Shown one piece after another: positions 35,690 through 59,209 of a stretch of 64,000 nt of DNA. The notes beneath the pieces are model-generated. The model made no database searches. It was given only the letters and a program-made list of their open reading frames with translations, and was not told where the DNA came from. The position numbers and the translations under genes are program-made. Positions within the stretch are counted from its first letter, which is position 1, and each line of letters starts with the position of its first letter. Origin of the DNA: Escherichia coli (GTDB lineage: Bacteria; Pseudomonadota; Gammaproteobacteria; Enterobacterales; Enterobacteriaceae); NCBI RefSeq assembly GCF_048403405.1, contig NZ_CP183129.1; one strand, given 5' to 3'.

Positions 35690-36783
35690 TAACGTCCCTC
35701 AAAATCTATACGCGGATCGACCAGCGTATAGCTGATATCACTGACAATATTCAGCAGCAGGCCAATCAGGGTGAAAATATACAAGGTACCAAACATTACA
35801 GGATAATCGCGCGAGACGGTCGCTTCGTAGCCCAGTAAGCCAAGACCATTGAGTGAAAACATCACCTCAATCAGCAGCGAGCCGGTAAAAAACATGCTGA
35901 TAAACGTCGCCGGAAAACCGGCAATCACCAGCAGCATGGCGTTGCGGAACACATGTTTCCAGAGAATATTTTTTTCACTTACCCCTTTCGCACGGGCGGT
36001 CACCACGTATTGCTTGCGCACTTCATCAAGGAATGAGTTTTTTGTCAGCATGGTCAGCGCCGCAAAGCCGCCAATCACTGTCGCCAGCACCGGCAGCGTG
36101 ATATGCCACAGATAATCGGTGATTTTCTGATACCACGGCAGCGAATCAAAGTTAGCGGAAACCAGGCCGCGTAGAGGGAACAGGTCGAAATAGCTGCCGC
36201 CTGCGAAGAAGACAATCAGCAGGATGGCAAACAAAAAGGCCGGAATGGCGTAGCCGATGATGATAAATGCACTACTCCAGACGTCAAAGCGACTACCATT
36301 ATAAACAGCTTTGCGAATGCCTAACGGAATCGACACCAGATAGATAATCAGCGTGCTCCATAATCCGAGGGTGATGGAAACCGGCAGACTATCTTTAATC
36401 AGCGTCAGTACCGAGGCGCTGCGAAAAAGGCTGTCGCCAAAATCAAAGCGGATGTAGTCCCAGAGCATTTTGAAGTAACGTTCGTGGATCGGCTTATCGA
36501 AACCGTAGCGATGAGTGATCTCGGCGATCACTTCTGGATCTAATCCGCGTCCGCCACGGTAATTACTGTCGCTGATATTGCCGACGCCCGTTTGCGCATG
36601 GCTGGCGCGAACACCTTCACCGCCTGCGCCGGGTAATACTCCGGCATTACCAAACTCAATGGCGGCGATGGCCTGGTCGACCGGACCGCCAGGCGCAATT
36701 TGCACGATGAAAAAGTTGATAGTGATAATCGCCCATAACGTTGGGATCACCAGCAACAGACGGCGAATCAGATAAGCGCCCAT
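35689..36783 (-). CDS. yejB: ABC transporter permease YejB
   Basis: 364 aa, DppB-like permease. Confidence 0.9.
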
Positions 36784-51243: not shown

Positions 51244-51253
51244 TAAAAGGTGT

Positions 51254-51284
51254 GTTACAGGGCAGAAATTTCCTGCCCTGTAAC
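51254..51284 (+). terminator. Hairpin immediately downstream of fruA
   Basis: 12-bp perfect stem gttacagggcag/ctgccctgtaac with a 7-nt loop, followed by a moderately U-rich tract. Confidence 0.55.
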
Positions 51285-51398
51285 ATTTGATGCGCGCAAA
51301 GAGAATGACCGGTTTGTGAATGTAATTTTATGAATTTAAATGGTTTTATCTTTTAGTGGAAACCTGAAACTTTCATCAAACACTAAGGTTATTTCCTC

Positions 51399-51427
51399 AA
51401 GGGCAGATTAATTTCTGCCCTTTTTTA
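51399..51427 (+). terminator. Second rho-independent terminator about 150 bp downstream of fruA
   Basis: aagggcagattaatttctgccctttttt, a 9-bp stem plus T6. Confidence 0.65.
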
Positions 51428-51666
51428 GTGTTCCTGTTCTGTGCATCCCGTCACAAATTCCCCCTTTTTATAATTCAGGTATTTAATCGCGTTTTGTGAG
51501 CCTGCTCAAATCTGCCCATTTTGCCTCTCTGGCGGTAATTTACTTTACGTAAAACATGCATACTATGAGCACATGTTTAAATATGAACACATGTTTAAAC
51601 CGTCTTTGCAGTATCAATATTCTTGTGGATTGACAGGGTTGGTAATTTTTTACCAGAGGACGTGCT

Positions 51667-52608
51667 ATGCGCGAAAAGGATTATGTCGTAATTATAGGTT
51701 CGGCGAATATTGATGTCGCCGGATATTCACATGAATCATTAAATTATGCGGATTCAAATCCAGGTAAAATAAAATTTACGCCTGGTGGAGTAGGGCGCAA
51801 TATTGCACAAAACCTGGCGTTGCTGGGGAATAAAGCCTGGCTACTGAGCGCAGTAGGCAGTGATTTTTATGGTCAATCGTTGCTAACGCAAACCAATCAA
51901 TCTGGTGTTTATGTCGATAAATGCCTGATTGTGCCGGGAGAAAATACGTCGAGCTATTTATCATTACTCGATAATACCGGTGAAATGCTGGTTGCTATAA
52001 ATGACATGAATATTAGCAACGCTATTACAGCTGAATATCTCGCACAGCACGGTGAATTTATTCAGAGGGCAAAGGTCATTGTCGCGGACTGTAATATCAG
52101 TGAAGAGGCACTGGCATGGATTCTGGATAATGCCGCCAACGTACCCGTATTTGTCGATCCTGTTTCCGCGTGGAAATGTGTCAAAGTGCGCGACCGTCTA
52201 AATCAAATCCACACTCTCAAGCCAAACCGCCTTGAAGCGGAAACCCTGAGTGGGATTGCTTTGTCAGGGCGTGAAGATGTGGCAAAAGTTGCTGCCTGGT
52301 TCCATCAACATGGCCTGAACCGACTGGTATTGAGCATGGGCGGCGACGGCGTTTATTACAGTGATATCAGCGGTGAAAGTGGTTGGTCTGTGCCGATCAA
52401 AACCAATGTCATTAATGTTACCGGAGCGGGCGATGCCATGATGGCTGGACTTGCTTCGTGTTGGGTAGACGGAATGCCGTTTGCCGAATCTGTTCGTTTC
52501 GCACAGGGATGTTCGTCAATGGCGCTCTCCTGTGAATACACCAATAACCCCGATTTATCGATTGCCAACGTTATATCGTTAGTGGAGAACGCAGAATGTC
52601 TGAATTAA
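51667..52608 (+). CDS. psuK: Pseudouridine kinase PsuK (YeiC)
   Basis: 313 aa, PfkB family (GAGDAMMAG). Confidence 0.9.
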   Translation: MREKDYVVIIGSANIDVAGYSHESLNYADSNPGKIKFTPGGVGRNIAQNLALLGNKAWLLSAVGSDFYGQSLLTQTNQSGVYVDKCLIVPGENTSSYLSLLDNTGEMLVAINDMNISNAITAEYLAQHGEFIQRAKVIVADCNISEEALAWILDNAANVPVFVDPVSAWKCVKVRDRLNQIHTLKPNRLEAETLSGIALSGREDVAKVAAWFHQHGLNRLVLSMGGDGVYYSDISGESGWSVPIKTNVINVTGAGDAMMAGLASCWVDGMPFAESVRFAQGCSSMALSCEYTNNPDLSIANVISLVENAECLN

Positions 52609-53534
52609 AAATTTCCCCTGAATTATTACAAATTTCCCCGGAAGTGCAGGACGCTTTAAAAAACAAAAAACCGGTTGTGGCGCTGGAATCGACCATTATT
52701 TCTCACGGGATGCCGTTCCCACAAAATGCCCAGACCGCAATTGAAGTTGAAGAAACTATTCGTAAACAGGGCGCTGTACCTGCCACTATCGCCATTATTG
52801 GCGGCGTGATGAAAGTGGGTTTAAGCAAAGAAGAAATTGAATTGCTGGGTCGTGAAGGGCATAACGTGACCAAAGTTAGTCGTCGCGATTTACCTTTTGT
52901 TGTTGCCGCCGGAAAAAATGGCGCAACTACCGTTGCTTCAACGATGATTATTGCGGCGCTTGCCGGAATTAAAGTATTTGCCACCGGGGGAATTGGTGGT
53001 GTGCATCGCGGGGCGGAACATACCTTCGATATTTCTGCCGATTTGCAAGAACTGGCAAATACTAATGTCACCGTTGTTTGTGCCGGTGCAAAATCTATTC
53101 TCGATTTAGGATTAACAACAGAATATTTAGAAACCTTCGGTGTGCCGTTAATTGGCTATCAGACAAAAGCGCTGCCTGCGTTTTTCTGCCGTACCAGCCC
53201 ATTTGAAGTTAGTATTCGCCTTGATAGTCCCACGGAAATCGCTCGTGCAATGGCGGTGAAATGGCAAAGCGGTCTGAACGGTGGCCTGGTGGTGGCAAAT
53301 CCGATCCCGGAACAGTTTGCGATGCCGGAACACACTATCAATGCGGCGATCGATCAGGCGGTAGCTGAAGCTGAAGAGCAGGGCGTTATTGGTAAAGAAA
53401 GCACACCGTTCCTGCTGGCTCGTGTTGCTGAACTGACTGGCGGTGACAGCCTGAAATCCAACATCCAGCTGGTGTTCAACAACGCCATTCTGGCGAGCGA
53501 AATTGCCAAAGAATATCAGCGTCTCGCGGGTTAA
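52596..53534 (+). CDS. psuG: Pseudouridine-5'-phosphate glycosidase PsuG (YeiN)
   Basis: 312 aa; start overlaps psuK. Confidence 0.9.
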   Translation: MSELKISPELLQISPEVQDALKNKKPVVALESTIISHGMPFPQNAQTAIEVEETIRKQGAVPATIAIIGGVMKVGLSKEEIELLGREGHNVTKVSRRDLPFVVAAGKNGATTVASTMIIAALAGIKVFATGGIGGVHRGAEHTFDISADLQELANTNVTVVCAGAKSILDLGLTTEYLETFGVPLIGYQTKALPAFFCRTSPFEVSIRLDSPTEIARAMAVKWQSGLNGGLVVANPIPEQFAMPEHTINAAIDQAVAEAEEQGVIGKESTPFLLARVAELTGGDSLKSNIQLVFNNAILASEIAKEYQRLAG

Positions 53535-53627
53535 TTTCTGACGGGCAGAAAGCCGTCGCCCGTACTCATCAAGCATACCAAAACCTGGCGCTGACGCCGG
53601 GTTTACTGGCATGAAGGGAAAATCATT

Positions 53628-54878
53628 ATGGATATAATGAGAAGTGTTGTGGGGATGGTGGTGTTACTGGCAATAGCATTTCTGTTGTCAGTGAATAAAA
53701 AGGGCATCAGTTTGCGCACGGTTGGAGCCGCACTGCTGCTGCAAATCGCTATTGGTGGCATCATGCTCTACTTCCCACCGGGAAAATGGGCAGTAGAACA
53801 GGCGGCATTAGGCGTTCATAAAGTGATGTCTTACAGTGATGCCGGTAGCGCCTTTATTTTTGGTTCATTGGTCGGGCCGAAAATGGATGTCCTGTTTGAT
53901 GGCGCGGGCTTTATCTTCGCCTTTCGCGTACTCCCGGCGATTATCTTCGTCACTGCGCTCATCAGCCTGCTGTACTACATTGGCGTGATGGGACTGCTGA
54001 TTCGCATTCTTGGCAGCATTTTCCAGAAAGCTCTCAACATCAGCAAAATCGAATCTTTTGTTGCGGTTACCACTATTTTCCTCGGGCAAAATGAGATCCC
54101 GGCGATCGTTAAACCGTTTATCGATCGCATGAATCGCAACGAGTTGTTTACCGCAATTTGTAGCGGGATGGCGTCCATTGCTGGTTCGATGATGATTGGT
54201 TATGCCGGAATGGGCGTACCAATTGACTACCTGTTAGCGGCATCGCTGATGGCGATCCCTGGCGGGATTTTGTTTGCACGTATTCTTAGCCCGGCAACCG
54301 AGCCTTCGCAGGTCACATTTGAAAATCTGTCGTTCAGCGAAACACCGCCAAAAAGCTTTATCGAAGCAGCGGCGAGCGGTGCGATGACCGGGTTGAAAAT
54401 CGCCGCTGGTGTGGCGACGGTGGTAATGGCGTTTGTCGCAATTATTGCGCTGATTAATGGCATTATCGGCGGAATTGGCGGCTGGTTTGGTTTTACCAAT
54501 GCTTCTCTGGAAAGTATTTTTGGCTATGTGCTGGCACCGCTGGCGTGGATCATGGGTGTGGACTGGAGTGATGCCAATCTTGCGGGTAGCCTGATTGGGC
54601 AGAAACTGGCGATTAACGAATTCGTCGCTTACCTGAGTTTCTCCCCATACCTGCAAACGGGCGGCACGCTGGAAGTGAAAACCATTGCGATTATCTCCTT
54701 TGCGCTTTGTGGTTTTGCTAACTTTGGTTCTATCGGTGTTGTCGTTGGCGCATTTTCGGCTATTTCGCCTAAACGCGCACCGGAAATCGCCCAGCTTGGT
54801 TTACGGGCGCTGGCAGCAGCAACGCTTTCCAACCTGATGAGCGCGACCATTGCCGGGTTCTTTATTGGTTTAGCTTGA
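53628..54878 (+). CDS. psuT: Nucleoside transporter PsuT (YeiM), CNT family
   Basis: 416 aa; near-identical paralog of nupX (56815-58065). Confidence 0.9.
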   Translation: MDIMRSVVGMVVLLAIAFLLSVNKKGISLRTVGAALLLQIAIGGIMLYFPPGKWAVEQAALGVHKVMSYSDAGSAFIFGSLVGPKMDVLFDGAGFIFAFRVLPAIIFVTALISLLYYIGVMGLLIRILGSIFQKALNISKIESFVAVTTIFLGQNEIPAIVKPFIDRMNRNELFTAICSGMASIAGSMMIGYAGMGVPIDYLLAASLMAIPGGILFARILSPATEPSQVTFENLSFSETPPKSFIEAAASGAMTGLKIAAGVATVVMAFVAIIALINGIIGGIGGWFGFTNASLESIFGYVLAPLAWIMGVDWSDANLAGSLIGQKLAINEFVAYLSFSPYLQTGGTLEVKTIAIISFALCGFANFGSIGVVVGAFSAISPKRAPEIAQLGLRALAAATLSNLMSATIAGFFIGLA

Positions 54879-54945: not shown

Positions 54946-55605
54946 TTACTGCATCATCCCTGAGAATTTATTTTCCGGGTCCATCTCCAGTGCCAGTCCT
55001 GACAACTGCTTTCTGTTTTTAATTAGATACCCTTTCTTGCTTTTAATTAATAAACCGTCGTGAATGAATTGCGCTAGAACATATAAAAGATGTCGATAAG
55101 AAACGCCTAAATACTCTGCCGCTTGCGTATGCTTTTCGTGATAAAGATCACCTTCCTGCGAGAGTAATATAAAAGCTGCCAGGCGATTCACTAACGGAAA
55201 TGATTGATTCTGAGTTAAAGAAACAATATTGCGATAATTTTTATGGCTTAAGGTGACGCAGAGTTTTCGTAAAAATAGCGTGTCGTTTAATAACAGCGGA
55301 CGGTAATGTTTCATAGGGAGCGCAAGGCACCAACACTCTTCAATAGCCTGTACCGCACGCGGTTCATGGTCTTTGTCGATTAACTCAATCTCGCCAATAA
55401 AACAGGGAGCGGCAAAGAAATCGATCAGCGACACGCGACCATTAGCTAGCGTGGCGTAAAGCCTGGCGCGGCCTCGCGTCAGGTAAAACAGCCAGGACGG
55501 CTGTTGCCCTTCCTGCACAATGTAGTCACGCGCTAAAAAATGAAACAGCCGCGTATCGGCTGAAACATCCGTTGAAAAGCAATCCTTAAACGCGGATTCA
55601 CTCAT
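54946..55605 (-). CDS. yeiL: Crp/Fnr-family transcriptional regulator YeiL
   Basis: 219 aa from the internal ATG ([10 protein letters not shown]...); cNMP-binding-like domain plus C-terminal HTH. Confidence 0.85.
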
Positions 55606-55773
55606 CAATTGCTGCTTAAGGTCATTATTGTGGATTTCTTTCACGATGTTTATCCGCTATGAGATTTCTCATATTTAGCATACTTACGCTGTTGTTAAGA
55701 TTCAATCATCGGCCCGGTCGAATTTTCTTTGCTGTAGAAAAAATAACGCAACTGGAAACAGAGGAAATAAACA

Positions 55774-56715
55774 ATGGAAAAGAGAAAAATTATTCTGGAT
55801 TGTGATCCGGGTCATGATGATGCTATTGCCATAATGATGGCAGCGAAACATCCGGCAATAGATTTATTAGGCATCACCATTGTGGCGGGTAATCAGACGC
55901 TTGATAAAACATTAATTAATGGCCTGAATGTTTGCCAGAAACTGGAGATTAATGTTCCGGTTTATGCGGGGATGCCACAGCCCATTATGCGTCAACAAAT
56001 CGTTGCCGATAATATTCACGGTGAAACCGGACTGGATGGCCCGGTATTCGAGCCGCTGACCCGCCAGGCAGAAAGCACTCATGCGGTGAAATATATCATC
56101 GATACCCTGATGGCAAGCGATGGCGATATCACTCTGGTGCCGGTTGGTCCGCTTTCAAATATCGCGGTGGCAATGCGCATGCAGCCCGCAATCCTGCCGA
56201 AAATCCGTGAAATTGTGCTGATGGGCGGCGCTTACGGTACTGGCAACTTTACGCCATCCGCCGAGTTCAACATCTTTGCTGACCCGGAAGCCGCACGCGT
56301 GGTGTTCACCTCCGGCGTTCCGTTGGTGATGATGGGCCTCGATCTCACCAACCAGACCGTTTGCACCCCGGACGTGATTGCCCGGATGGAAAGGGCAGGC
56401 GGCCCTGCCGGAGAGCTGTTCAGCGACATCATGAACTTCACTCTCAAAACCCAGTTCGAAAACTATGGCCTGGCTGGCGGCCCGGTGCACGACGCCACCT
56501 GCATCGGTTATCTGATCAACCCTGATGGCATTAAAACCCAGGATATGTACGTCGAAGTGGATGTTAACAGTGGCCCTTGCTATGGGCGTACCGTCTGCGA
56601 CGAGCTGGGCGTTCTTGGCAAGCCAGCCAATACCAAAGTCGGCATCACTATTGATACCGACTGGTTCTGGGGCTTAGTCGAAGAGTGCGTGCGCGGCTAC
56701 ATCAAAACCCATTAA
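55774..56715 (+). CDS. rihB: Pyrimidine-specific ribonucleoside hydrolase RihB (YeiK)
   Basis: 313 aa; N-terminal DCDPGHDDA nucleoside hydrolase motif. Confidence 0.9.
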
Positions 56716-56728
56716 GTGTTGATAACAA

Positions 56729-56762
56729 GCCGGGCCGGTATCGCAAGATGCAGGCCCGGCTA
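56729..56762 (+). terminator. Hairpin downstream of rihB
   Basis: gccgggccggtatcgcaagatgcaggcccggc followed by TATTT. Confidence 0.55.
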
Positions 56763-56814
56763 TTTCTGATGGGCAGAAAGCCGTCGCCCAAAATGACATG
56801 AAGAGATAATAACT

Positions 56815-58065
56815 ATGGATGTCATGAGAAGTGTTCTGGGAATGGTTGTATTGCTGGCAATTGCGTTTTTGCTGTCAGTAAACAAGAAGAAGATCAGCCT
56901 GCGTACCGTTGGCGCGGCGTTAGTGTTACAGGTCGTGATTGGCGGCATTATGCTTTGGTTACCACCAGGGCGTTGGGTCGCAGAAAAAGTCGCTTTTGGC
57001 GTGCATAAAGTGATGGCGTACAGCGATGCAGGTAGCGCATTTATCTTTGGTTCTCTGGTCGGACCGAAAATGGATACCTTATTTGATGGCGCAGGATTTA
57101 TCTTTGGTTTCAGGGTATTACCGGCAATTATCTTCGTTACAGCACTGGTGAGTATTCTCTACTACATCGGTGTGATGGGGATCTTAATTCGCATTCTCGG
57201 CGGTATCTTCCAGAAAGCATTAAATATCAGCAAGATCGAGTCATTCGTCGCGGTCACTACCATTTTCCTCGGGCAAAACGAAATTCCGGCAATCGTCAAA
57301 CCCTTTATCGATCGGCTGAATCGCAATGAATTATTTACAGCGATTTGTAGTGGCATGGCCTCGATTGCTGGTTCGACAATGATTGGTTACGCTGCACTGG
57401 GCGTGCCTGTGGAATATCTGCTGGCGGCATCGTTAATGGCGATCCCCGGCGGGATCTTGTTTGCCCGCCTGTTAAGCCCGGCTACCGAATCTTCGCAGGT
57501 TTCCTTTAATAACCTCTCTTTCACCGAAACTCCGCCAAAAAGCTTTATCGAAGCAGCGGCGAGCGGTGCGATGACCGGACTGAAAATCGCCGCAGGTGTG
57601 GCGACAGTGGTGATGGCATTTGTTGCAATAATTGCGTTGATTAACGGTATTATCGGCGGCGTTGGCGGCTGGTTTGGTTTTGAACATGCCTCGCTGGAGT
57701 CCATTTTAGGTTACCTGTTGGCTCCACTGGCGTGGGTGATGGGGGTTGACTGGAGTGATGCGAATCTTGCCGGGAGTTTGATTGGACAGAAACTGGCGAT
57801 TAATGAATTTGTCGCTTACCTCAATTTCTCACCTTATCTGCAAACAGCTGGCACTCTGGATGCTAAAACCGTGGCGATTATTTCCTTCGCGTTGTGCGGT
57901 TTCGCTAACTTTGGTTCTATCGGGGTGGTGGTGGGGGCGTTTTCTGCGGTTGCGCCACACCGTGCGCCGGAAATCGCCCAGCTTGGTTTACGCGCGCTGG
58001 CGGCGGCGACACTTTCTAACCTGATGAGTGCCACCATTGCAGGATTCTTTATTGGCTTAGCGTAG
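56815..58065 (+). CDS. nupX: Nucleoside permease NupX (YeiJ), CNT family
   Basis: 416 aa; paralog of psuT. Confidence 0.9.
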   Translation: MDVMRSVLGMVVLLAIAFLLSVNKKKISLRTVGAALVLQVVIGGIMLWLPPGRWVAEKVAFGVHKVMAYSDAGSAFIFGSLVGPKMDTLFDGAGFIFGFRVLPAIIFVTALVSILYYIGVMGILIRILGGIFQKALNISKIESFVAVTTIFLGQNEIPAIVKPFIDRLNRNELFTAICSGMASIAGSTMIGYAALGVPVEYLLAASLMAIPGGILFARLLSPATESSQVSFNNLSFTETPPKSFIEAAASGAMTGLKIAAGVATVVMAFVAIIALINGIIGGVGGWFGFEHASLESILGYLLAPLAWVMGVDWSDANLAGSLIGQKLAINEFVAYLNFSPYLQTAGTLDAKTVAIISFALCGFANFGSIGVVVGAFSAVAPHRAPEIAQLGLRALAAATLSNLMSATIAGFFIGLA

Positions 58066-58120: not shown

Positions 58121-59209
58121 TTACACCATCGGCACTAATGAAAGCGCGTTATCGGCAGACAGGGTAGGGTTGTTTAAGCTGCCGCTGGCGCGTGAAATTG
58201 CCGCGCAGGCCATCGCAAAACGGGCGCTGTCACGGAAATTGTTTCCTTCCAGAAAGCTATATACCAGGCCCGCCATAAAACCATCGTCAGCACCAAAACT
58301 GTCTACTGTCGTATGCGCTGGTGCGGTCAGCAAAAATTGTTCTCCATCCTTTTCGCTGCAATAAACTGACTCATCGGGCAAATAAACAAACAGTTGCTGA
58401 ACGCCTTGCTGATGCAACGCATTCACTGCGGTATTACGGTCAGCATCGCTGGTGATCGCCTGTCCCCATAAAATTTCCAGCTCCGGTAAAGTGGGTTTCA
58501 GGGTGTGAATATGCGCCAGCCAGTGTTTGATTTTGCCCGCTTTGAATTCTGAAACGGTATCGACAAACACCGGGATTTCATCAGCGAGGGTAAAGACCCA
58601 CTCCAGCGCCTCGGCTGTCAGGTTGCAATCAGCCAGTACCACGCCCGCATGACGAAGTAAATCGCGCGACCCGTTCAGTAGTTGCGGTGTCAACTGTTCC
58701 AGCAGATGGGTATCGTTAATCGCCAGCACGGTTTGATCGTCTCGATTGGCAATTGCCAGATACGTCGATGTGCTTTGACCATGTAAACGAACGCAGCCGG
58801 AGACATTCACGCCGGCGCGGCGCGTTTCTTCCAGGAGCATTTCGCCATAAAAGTCATCGCCAATCACTGAAAGCAAATGGACGTCGCGGCCTAACAGCGC
58901 CAGATTGTGGGCGATATTGCGTCCAACGCCGCCTGCCGAGCAATGAATTGTACCGGGATGAGAAGCCGCTTGCGGGTAACGGATATCCGCCATCCCGCGA
59001 ATATCCATATTGATTGTCCCCACCACTACGCAGTATTCCTGCTCGGTGAGAATGTAACCTTTGCCTTTAATCCGACCTTTGCGCATTAAATCCATAATAT
59101 GCGCCGCAACGCGCGAACGGCTGATTTGCAGCATATCAGCAATTTCGTTCTGCTGAATCAGCGGGTTACGCCGTAAAATTGCAAGGATCTCCTTCTCCCG
59201 GTTGTTCAT
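58121..59209 (-). CDS. yeiI: PfkB-family sugar/nucleoside kinase with N-terminal HTH, YeiI
   Basis: 362 aa; N-terminal winged-helix (MNNREKEILAILRRNPLIQQNEIADML), C-terminal PfkB motif GADDGFMAG. Confidence 0.85.
   Translation of the reverse strand: MNNREKEILAILRRNPLIQQNEIADMLQISRSRVAAHIMDLMRKGRIKGKGYILTEQEYCVVVGTINMDIRGMADIRYPQAASHPGTIHCSAGGVGRNIAHNLALLGRDVHLLSVIGDDFYGEMLLEETRRAGVNVSGCVRLHGQSTSTYLAIANRDDQTVLAINDTHLLEQLTPQLLNGSRDLLRHAGVVLADCNLTAEALEWVFTLADEIPVFVDTVSEFKAGKIKHWLAHIHTLKPTLPELEILWGQAITSDADRNTAVNALHQQGVQQLFVYLPDESVYCSEKDGEQFLLTAPAHTTVDSFGADDGFMAGLVYSFLEGNNFRDSARFAMACAAISRASGSLNNPTLSADNALSLVPMV

Follow-up and report, generated by a model that had tools for sequence, protein, structure and literature searches.

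Gene organization of the psuK locus

In the stretch of Escherichia coli DNA analysed here (64 kb, referred to as the window), the fruB-fruK-fruA genes are followed by the pseudouridine catabolism genes psuK-psuG-psuT on the plus strand, and then by yeiL on the minus strand. The intergenic region of the window is 100% identical to that of E. coli strain M217, and the gene names used in the original prediction, made from the sequence alone, agree with the RefSeq annotation of the identical strain. The features of the locus are listed in Table 1.

Table 1. Coordinates of genes and sequence elements at the psuK locus (positions in the window).
Feature	Sequence	Position	Strand	Remarks and basis
CRP/FNR-type site	TGTGAgcctgcTCAAA	51495..51510		centre ~ -70.5 relative to the predicted start; sequence and conservation
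Putative -35 hexamer	TTTACT	51539..51544	+	same in 12 aligned enterobacterial sequences except E. albertii (TTTACA); also in Klebsiella
Recurrent adaptive SNP	T>G on the psuK strand	51541	+	NC_000913.2:2257444 A>C; yields TTGACT
Putative -10 hexamer	TACTAT	51561..51566	+	16 bp 3' of the -35; hexamer and spacing kept across genera
Tandem repeat unit 1	TATGAGCACATGTTTAAA	51564..51581	+	TRF and repeat search
Proposed operator O1	TGAGCAcaTGTTTA	51566..51579		core AGCA-N2-TGTT at 51568-51577; centre 51572/51573
Predicted transcription start	A	51573	+	7 nt after the -10, from whose position it is deduced
Tandem repeat unit 2	TATGAACACATGTTTAAA	51582..51599	+	17/18 identical to unit 1
Proposed operator O2	TGAACAcaTGTTTA	51584..51597		core AACA-N2-TGTT at 51586-51595; centre 51590/51591
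Palindrome/hairpin	TGGTAAttttTTACCA	51640..51655	+	directly 5' of the Shine-Dalgarno sequence GAGGA (51656-51660)
psuKGT operon		51667..54878	+	psuK 51667-52608, psuG 52596-53534, psuT 53628-54878; ORFs and RefSeq
yeiI, proposed cognate regulator		58121..59209	-	wHTH (HTH_24) and PfkB kinase-like domains; ORF, Pfam on orthologues, NCBIfam NF007416

Several elements of the upstream region are shared with other genera. The CRP-type site is kept as TGTGA-N6-TCATA in Citrobacter, Buttiauxella, E. albertii and a Raoultella-labelled metagenome-assembled genome (MAG), and its right arm in Klebsiella is TCATG. The hairpin preceding the Shine-Dalgarno sequence appears in other genera as TGGCAA..TTGCCA, with both sides changed and pairing kept. 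A sigma-54 reading of TGGCAAGTTAATTGCC, which precedes the Shine-Dalgarno sequence in Citrobacter, was rejected, as E. coli is without the GC element and the start would coincide with the ATG. An Rfam scan of the intergenic region returned no family, only two sub-threshold matches (E ~0.7), both off the repeat.

An 18-bp tandem repeat upstream of psuK

The original prediction described two adjacent 18-mers, each containing the palindromic hexamer ACATGT, about 65 bp upstream of psuK. The 18-mers are found at 51566-51583 and 51584-51601, ACATGT can be read directly in each, and the repeat in this frame ends 65 bp before the ATG at 51667. The stated identity of 16 of 18 positions was one too high for this frame, which gives 15/18, with mismatches at unit positions 4, 17 and 18. 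The best register, with the consensus TATGA[G/A]CACATGTTTAAA, sits two bases further upstream, and gives 17/18 identical positions (94%) by both TRF and repeat search. Across the 64-kb window TRF detected only two arrays, one of them the psuK repeat, and a two-copy tandem repeat with a period of at least 18 and at most one mismatch was obtained in 0 of 200 simulations under a first-order Markov model of the window. The repeat is thus real, and is more than a product of chance.

The repeat and the sequence preceding it are highly conserved within E. coli. In six diverse strains, including K-12, B and O157:H7, the 423-bp fruA-psuK spacer contains many SNPs, yet the segment from the -35 hexamer through the repeat is unchanged, and the 36 bp of the repeat are identical in all six. 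Of 5426 complete genomes, 4213 contain psuK, and a search with an 81-mer that covers promoter and repeat likewise gave 4213. The 81-mer aligned over at least 80% of its length in 4206 of these 4213 genomes, its best matches had at least 95% identity in all but one, and identity was 100% in 2749, compared with only 241 of 3427 genomes for a control 81-mer located 110 bp upstream. The most divergent variants sampled carry changes at 51536, 51558 and 51601, leaving the -35, the -10 and the repeat untouched. No change in the copy number of the repeat was detected among the 4213 genomes, and every inspected sequence contains two copies, unlike a variable-number tandem repeat. A loss that takes in the region and the 5' portion of psuK, beside an IS1 element, was seen in one isolate. 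Overall, the element is conserved more strongly than the flanking non-coding DNA, both within E. coli and between genera.

A pair of palindromes conserved across genera

The motif comparison began from eleven PsuK loci of other Enterobacteriaceae, and a site homologous to O1 is kept in 11 enterobacterial loci. In the 10 other genera compared, the conserved element is the palindrome (G/A)AACA-N2-TGTT(T/C), usually present twice, with the copies 18-19 bp apart. In E. coli, O2 matches AACANNTGTT exactly and O1 matches it with one mismatch. The 18-bp spacing between centres is also found in E. albertii, Citrobacter, Buttiauxella, E. lignolyticus, Klebsiella and Pasteurella, and the spacing is 19 bp in Shewanella and Aliivibrio. 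For example, the C. braakii sites are GAACATGTGTTT and GAACATGTGCTC, the E. albertii sites are GAACATGTGTTT followed by the perfect palindrome GAACATATGTTC, and a palindromic site in Shewanella is GCAAACATATGTTTGC. The order of elements shared between genera is a CRP-like site, TTTACT, 16 bp, TACTAT, and two AACA-N2-TGTT-like palindromes 18 bp apart.

The association of this motif with psu genes was quantified in 15 psu loci, from Escherichia, E. albertii, Citrobacter, the Raoultella-labelled MAG, Buttiauxella, Klebsiella, E. lignolyticus, Affinibrenneria, Yersinia, Serratia, Xenorhabdus, Pasteurella, Shewanella, Aliivibrio and a member of the Burkholderiaceae. A PsuG homologue search, aimed at psu operons that lack a wHTH-PfkB gene as a negative control, returned close relatives only, and added Klebsiella as a further positive locus. 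AACANNTGTT occurs with at most one mismatch in 15/15 psu upstream regions and exactly in 14/15, and the density of exact sites is 3.0/kb in these regions, compared with 0.044/kb elsewhere in the same loci (68-fold). When all 4-Nx-4 palindromes were scanned without bias, AACA-N2-TGTT ranked first, being present in 8 of 9 lineages, compared with 3 of 9 for the next pattern and a maximum of 4 in shuffled sequences. Six of the loci (L024-L028 and L032) joined the set only once the motif was settled, and exact matches are present in all six. Several taxa have a single site, and two sites 18-19 bp apart are present in Pasteurella, Shewanella and Aliivibrio. The annotated start follows the site at a distance of 247-284 bp in Yersinia, Serratia, Xenorhabdus and Affinibrenneria.

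These comparisons modify the initial description of the element in several respects. The proposal of an operator-like element for the pseudouridine operon holds insofar as invariance and cross-genus footprint both point to a regulatory site, but its description as a pair of half-sites does not, since each unit is a complete palindrome and the pair constitutes two full sites 18 bp apart. The dyad symmetry within each unit would suit a dimeric HTH protein. Nor is ACATGT the conserved core, as this hexamer is displaced by 2 bp relative to the AACA/TGTT arms in Citrobacter and E. albertii (in GAACATGTGTTT), and the TTTAAA part of the repeat is Escherichia-specific. Of the expected conservation in other enterobacterial psuK regions, the paired palindromes are borne out and the near-perfect 18-bp direct repeat is not. 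The exact 36-bp repeat is present in E. coli, Escherichia sp. E1V33 and E. whittamii, and absent from E. albertii; judged from these sequences, only E. coli-like Escherichia have the near-perfect direct repeat. Given this distribution, the second site appears to have been homogenized to the first on the branch of E. coli and its nearest relatives.

Within the E. coli window, searches for other copies of the repeat core with CACATGTTTAAA, GAACANNTGTTY and AACANNTGTT gave only chance-level matches. The exact motif matches elsewhere in the window, at 35948 and 61532, are both within coding regions, the motif is absent from the yeiL-rihB, rihB-nupX, nfo-yeiH and yeiH-yeiE intergenic regions, and no motif site is present 5' of yeiI or nfo. 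Neither a local regulon extending beyond psuK nor autoregulation of yeiI is thus indicated by the window sequence.

The predicted psuK promoter and a recurrent adaptive mutation

The arrangement TTTACT, 16 bp, TACTAT is common to Escherichia, Citrobacter, Buttiauxella, the Raoultella-labelled MAG and Klebsiella, with variants including TTTACA/TTATTA in E. albertii, and the -10 hexamers TATCAT in Citrobacter sp. FP75 and TACCAT in Klebsiella. A consensus promoter scan did not call this promoter, which scores just 8/12, and Ishihama-type SELEX tables list no constitutive sigma-70 promoter for the psuK upstream region.

A SNP in the psuK/fruA spacer, NC_000913.2:2257444 A>C, recurs in mouse-gut evolution experiments (PMC7518454, PMC9509342). 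It was assigned by one of these studies to the psuK promoter region, with psuK expression cited among the effects of such intergenic changes, and with growth rate altered (PMC9509342). In long-term stationary-phase cultures, a single A>C allele in the same spacer, labelled 'psuKp', was fixed, and appeared in 3 of 4 populations; the gut and stationary-phase literature on the evolution of this spacer comprises PMC7518454, PMC9509342, PMC6731689, PMC10340439 and PMC7858067. After correction for the offset between NC_000913 versions (1978, calibrated on srlR L25S) and reading of the base in the K-12 sequence, the gut SNP maps 126 bp 5' of the psuK ATG, to the third base of TTTACT, converting it into TTGACT. 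This allele is carried by only five complete genomes, one from a pigeon isolate, and the others from the laboratory strains ER1821R, ER2683, S17-1 and ST18.

The conservation of the two hexamers and their 16-bp spacing, together with a SNP that creates TTGACT, suggests that the TTTACT/TACTAT pair is a weak psuK promoter, with a start near 51573, equivalent to about 2259390 on the minus strand of NC_000913.3. Such a promoter would place the O1 centre at about -1/+1 and the O2 centre at about +18.5, positions that would be typical of steric repression.

YeiI and related wHTH-PfkB proteins as candidate binders

The original prediction named the Crp/Fnr-family protein YeiL and the HTH-kinase YeiI as candidate regulators, and held that nothing in the sequence assigns the site to either. 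This is correct for the single sequence, but no longer holds with the comparative data, which strongly favour YeiI. YeiI consists of an N-terminal winged HTH domain (wHTH, Pfam HTH_24) followed by a PfkB domain ~40% identical to PsuK, and a wHTH-PfkB gene is present in 15/15 psu loci carrying the motif. It takes the form of yeiI, transcribed convergently to psuT, in E. albertii, Citrobacter, Buttiauxella, Klebsiella, E. lignolyticus and Affinibrenneria. In Yersinia, Serratia, Xenorhabdus, Pasteurella, Shewanella, Aliivibrio and the Burkholderiaceae genome, a fused wHTH-PfkB gene is the first gene of the operon, preceding psuG in the arrangement [wHTH-PfkB]-[psuG]-(transporter), and encodes a protein with 43-51% identity to YeiI. 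As the motif is retained in loci where yeiI or a fused wHTH-kinase gene is present and yeiL is absent, YeiI is favoured, and the sites are probably bound by YeiI and not by YeiL.

Sequence comparisons within the family point in the same direction. The wHTH is 57-72% identical to that of E. coli YeiI, compared with 38-48% for the kinase domain, and its putative recognition region is highly conserved; the high conservation of the wHTH would fit a shared DNA specificity. Three PsuK residues, S30, N143 and K170, which have been tied to pseudouridine affinity and conformational change (PMC9061257), are unchanged in YeiI and in the fused proteins. The PfkB motif GAGD is intact in PsuK and the fused proteins, and is GADD or GADE in YeiI. 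The fused kinase domains of Yersinia, Serratia and Pasteurella are 58-60% identical to PsuK, compared with 44-48% to YeiI. PsuK itself is a homodimer (PMC9247573). The PDB contains no solved structure with the wHTH of the YeiI family, the best match being PsuK itself, with coverage of residues 55-359. NCBIfam NF007416 names YeiI only 'sugar kinase', and papers from 2018 to 2025 still list yeiI as uncharacterized, or as a hypothetical transcription factor.

Alternative readings of the motif

The palindromes could instead be operators for a transcription factor other than YeiI, such as an unlinked regulator conserved across the same taxa. The motif bears some resemblance to other palindromic operators. 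The Gram-positive LexA box GAAC-N4-GTTC and the FabR palindrome ACACGTGT are possible look-alikes, and serve here as leads only. The lack of yeiI mutations in the portions of the evolution experiments covered would also be accommodated by this reading. However, no DNA-binding domain other than the wHTH of YeiI and of the fused HTH-PsuK proteins accompanies the motif in 15/15 loci, from Gamma- to Betaproteobacteria, and the putative recognition region of this wHTH is highly conserved, whereas the neighbouring regulators (of the LysR, GntR and ArsR types) vary from locus to locus. Binding by another factor is thus considered unlikely, if still worth bearing in mind.

A second alternative is that the units act as RNA, forming a hairpin at the 5' end of the psuK leader, through which the stability or translation of the mRNA would be influenced. 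The minimum free energy fold pairs 51575-51585 with 51590-51600 (z = -2.3), and RNAalifold retains an 8-bp version of this hairpin over 10 enterobacterial sequences. Such a hairpin is, however, an automatic result of two adjacent palindromes. Its covariation term is just -0.31 kcal/mol, the two central pairs are broken in E. coli-type sequences, and the AACA/TGTT primary sequence is kept without compensatory change from E. coli to Burkholderiaceae, while taxa with a single site cannot form an inter-site hairpin at all. Together with the lack of an Rfam match, and the fact that transcription of the region is itself deduced, these observations make a leader hairpin rather improbable as the function of the element.

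Binding by YeiL, the other candidate originally named, is suggested by the position of yeiL 3.3 kb downstream in E. coli, but the architecture of the sites, with 4-5-bp arms and a 2-bp gap, differs from the 5-N4-5 of FNR and 5-N6-5 of CRP, whose sites have a 22-bp footprint. Moreover, among the loci fetched, yeiL was seen only in those of E. coli-like Escherichia (L009-L011), and both sites occur without the yeiL-rihB-nupX block in the loci of E. albertii, Citrobacter, Buttiauxella, Klebsiella and E. lignolyticus; nor is there a motif copy in the yeiL-rihB or rihB-nupX intergenic regions. YeiL is thus a very improbable binder of the repeat. For any action of YeiL at the psuK promoter, the better candidate would be the TGTGA-N6-TCAAA site (51495-51510), but the conservation of that site in loci where yeiL is not adjacent points to CRP.

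A neutral slippage duplication could explain why the 18-bp similarity extends to the non-palindromic flanks TAT and TTTAAA, which are lineage-specific and resemble a local duplication or conversion, but with a sequence invariant in the E. coli variants examined, no copy-number change in 4213 genomes, and a two-site architecture that is older than the duplication and kept across genera, a repeat devoid of function is barely credible.

A proposed model for YeiI-dependent regulation of psuKGT

The reading preferred here, held with reasonable though not high confidence, is that the repeat represents two adjacent palindromic operators at the start of psuKGT, each probably bound by a YeiI dimer and mediating repression relieved by a ligand. 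The two AACA-N2-TGTT operators, 18 bp from centre to centre, would cover the start point and the first transcribed stretch of a weak sigma-70 promoter, which is probably CRP-assisted. YeiI, combining a winged HTH with a kinase-like domain paralogous to pseudouridine kinase, would probably occupy each site as one dimer and block RNA polymerase, and binding of pseudouridine or its phosphate to the kinase-like domain would then release YeiI from the DNA.

The related operons of other proteobacteria suggest an evolutionary origin for this system. In many of these the wHTH is predicted to be fused to the pathway kinase itself, with the same motif in front of the operon. The presence of fused kinases with the same motif, the pattern of sequence identities, the distribution of GAGD and the dimeric state of PsuK suggest an ancestral self-regulating kinase-repressor, which may have split in Enterobacteriaceae into the enzyme PsuK and the sensor-regulator YeiI. 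In this duplication, PsuK would have lost the wHTH, and the catalytic motif of YeiI would have changed from GAGD to GADD or GADE. The broader proposition, that YeiI and the fused wHTH-PsuK proteins constitute an unrecognized class of PfkB-fold kinase-repressors sensing pseudouridine, duplicated into PsuK and YeiI and with the operator at 51566-51597, is regarded as evenly balanced.

Several observations sit less comfortably with this model. The 18-bp spacing would place two dimers on different faces of the helix, and in four genera the site is located ~250-285 bp from the annotated start. The two sites are also able to pair as an RNA hairpin, and in E. coli neither yeiI nor nfo is preceded by a site. 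A further observation comes from the published evolution experiments. In the gut-evolution data the repressors frlR, srlR and dgoR are repeatedly inactivated, and glpR is mutated in both the gut and the stationary-phase data. The change at psuK is in each case the one promoter SNP, and the parts of the text and supplements covered contain no yeiI mutations. This pattern would be surprising for a simple repressor, though it could be reconciled with an operon that is already induced in vivo.

No description of an operator or regulon at psuK was found in the searchable literature, which likewise yielded no regulator, transcription start or binding data for psuK/yeiC, YeiI or YeiL at the psuK promoter. 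If correct, the model would be the first for the regulation of bacterial pseudouridine catabolism, and would give the E. coli y-gene yeiI a function. It would also explain the anatomy of a promoter repeatedly targeted by adaptation, in which TTGACT replaces a weak -35 just 5' of the operators. A pseudouridine-responsive regulator and its operator would, in addition, be directly usable as a biosensor, with relevance to the engineering of pseudouridine production for mRNA therapeutics (PMC10552469, PMC13090712).

Comparison with known regulatory systems

A close architectural parallel to YeiI is provided by the ROK-family repressors NagC, Mlc and XylR, which similarly consist of an N-terminal wHTH fused to a domain homologous to a pathway kinase. 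Their operators resemble the psuK sites in being palindromic, in overlapping catabolic promoters and in often occurring as two copies, and their ligand is the sugar or sugar phosphate of the pathway. However, the ROK domain has the ASKHA (glucokinase) fold and YeiI the PfkB/ribokinase fold, the motif is unrelated, and no ROK domain was detected in YeiI.

The fused wHTH-PsuK proteins are comparable to the trigger enzymes BirA, NadR and PutA, since each appears to be the sole pseudouridine kinase of its operon, with GAGD intact and the motif upstream. The combination of a fused kinase and an upstream motif would imply an enzyme regulating its own operon. These proteins differ from BirA, NadR and PutA in enzyme class and ligand, and in E. 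coli the two roles are apparently split between PsuK and YeiI.

Nucleoside catabolism in E. coli offers a further comparison. The deo, cdd, udp and nupC/nupG promoters, which are controlled by CRP and by CytR or DeoR as the specific repressor, resemble the predicted psuK promoter in combining a weak promoter, an upstream CRP-type site and a repressor site at or near the start, and CytR/DeoR-type systems likewise involve nucleoside substrates and a NupC-family transporter, which at psuK is encoded in the operon. CytR, of the LacI family, and DeoR bind to motifs other than the psuK palindrome, however, and contacts with CRP account for part of their action. The psuK promoter differs further in having its sites downstream of the predicted -10, and in a candidate factor of a different family.

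The direct-repeat sites of OmpR/PhoB-type regulators share with the psuK repeat the presence of two head-to-tail copies near a promoter, but their period of ~10-11 bp and non-palindromic units, compared with the 18-bp period and palindromic units at psuK, led to rejection of this assignment. In its predicted mode of action, the psuK element would work like an ordinary pair of operators overlapping a promoter.

The psuK promoter and leader

Upstream of the psuK promoter lies a CRP/FNR-type site, TGTGAgcctgcTCAAA, whose conserved form in most other genera is TGTGA-N6-TCATA (with TCATG as the second half-site in Klebsiella). Most likely CRP binds here in a class I arrangement; should the neighbouring Crp/Fnr-family regulator YeiL act at the psuK promoter, this site would be the more plausible target. 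The promoter itself contains the mapped position of the recurrent adaptive psuK/fruA SNP, which converts the -35 hexamer TTTACT into TTGACT. This SNP is a recurrent adaptive change in mouse-gut evolution experiments (PMC7518454, PMC9509342). An A>C change in the same psuK/fruA spacer, placed to the spacer only, was fixed by long-term stationary-phase cultures. The TTGACT allele is also present in five complete genomes, those of the laboratory strains ER1821R, ER2683, S17-1 and ST18 and of one pigeon isolate.

Coordinates of features in and around the psuK-psuG-psuT operon
Feature	Position	Remark
Hairpin 1 after fruA	51253-51285	
Hairpin 2 after fruA	51399-51428	
CRP/FNR-type site TGTGAgcctgcTCAAA	51495-51510	centre ~70.5 bp upstream of inferred psuK start
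Adaptive psuK/fruA SNP	51541	inside -35 hexamer 51539-51544
Palindrome/hairpin TGGTAAttttTTACCA	51640-51655	abuts Shine-Dalgarno of psuK
Second tandem repeat	52604-52643	psuG start, just after psuK/psuG overlap; period 21, 1.9 copies
yeiL-rihB-nupX	54946-58065	between psuT and yeiI
yeiI	58121-59209	

In the psuK leader, the palindrome TGGTAAttttTTACCA has a predicted fold with an energy of -6.3 kcal/mol (z = -2.65). Its counterpart in Citrobacter, Buttiauxella and E. albertii reads TGGCAA..TTGCCA, so that both arms differ and still pair. The element may work as a stem in the RNA, influencing translation or stability, or may be bound by a further protein. The leader is 11 bp shorter in SCPM-O-B-8794 (the GTDB 'E. 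coli' representative) than in other Escherichia sequences (L010, 4901-5003), a shortfall that appears as a 14-column alignment gap. The absent stretch lies just downstream of the 18-bp tandem repeat and leaves the promoter-operator block intact, which argues that the distance from operator to Shine-Dalgarno is flexible and that from operator to -10 is not. Of the 5426 complete E. coli genomes, 1213 (~22%) lack psuK and its promoter, and in isolate L1_E925 an IS1 adjoins a deletion in which the 5' part of psuK is gone along with the operators. Within the operon, the second tandem repeat encodes the repeated peptide ELKISP/ELLQISP.

The region downstream of fruA

The two hairpins after fruA have a 12-nt stem sequence in common, with 100% complementarity between them. 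Only hairpin 2 is followed by a T run (+ strand) and has a counterpart directly 3' of fruA in Klebsiella, so in E. coli the fruA stop and its terminator seem to be set apart by ~150 bp of additional DNA, which is well conserved. A 3'UTR or a small RNA might account for it; on the opposite strand, a small hypothetical CDS is annotated here in some RefSeq records.

Flanking genes and the YeiI kinase domain

In a comparison with loci L012-L019, L028 and L032, the yeiL-rihB-nupX block sits between psuT and yeiI only in E. coli-like Escherichia, and it includes a transporter duplicate, since NupX is ~88% identical to PsuT. In YeiI-type proteins, the GAGD motif of the PfkB family is replaced by GADD (GADE in Affinibrenneria), suggesting that catalysis is altered or lost in the proposed regulator paralogue; GAGD is retained by PsuK and by the fused wHTH-kinases, which combine the wHTH and pseudouridine kinase in one protein.
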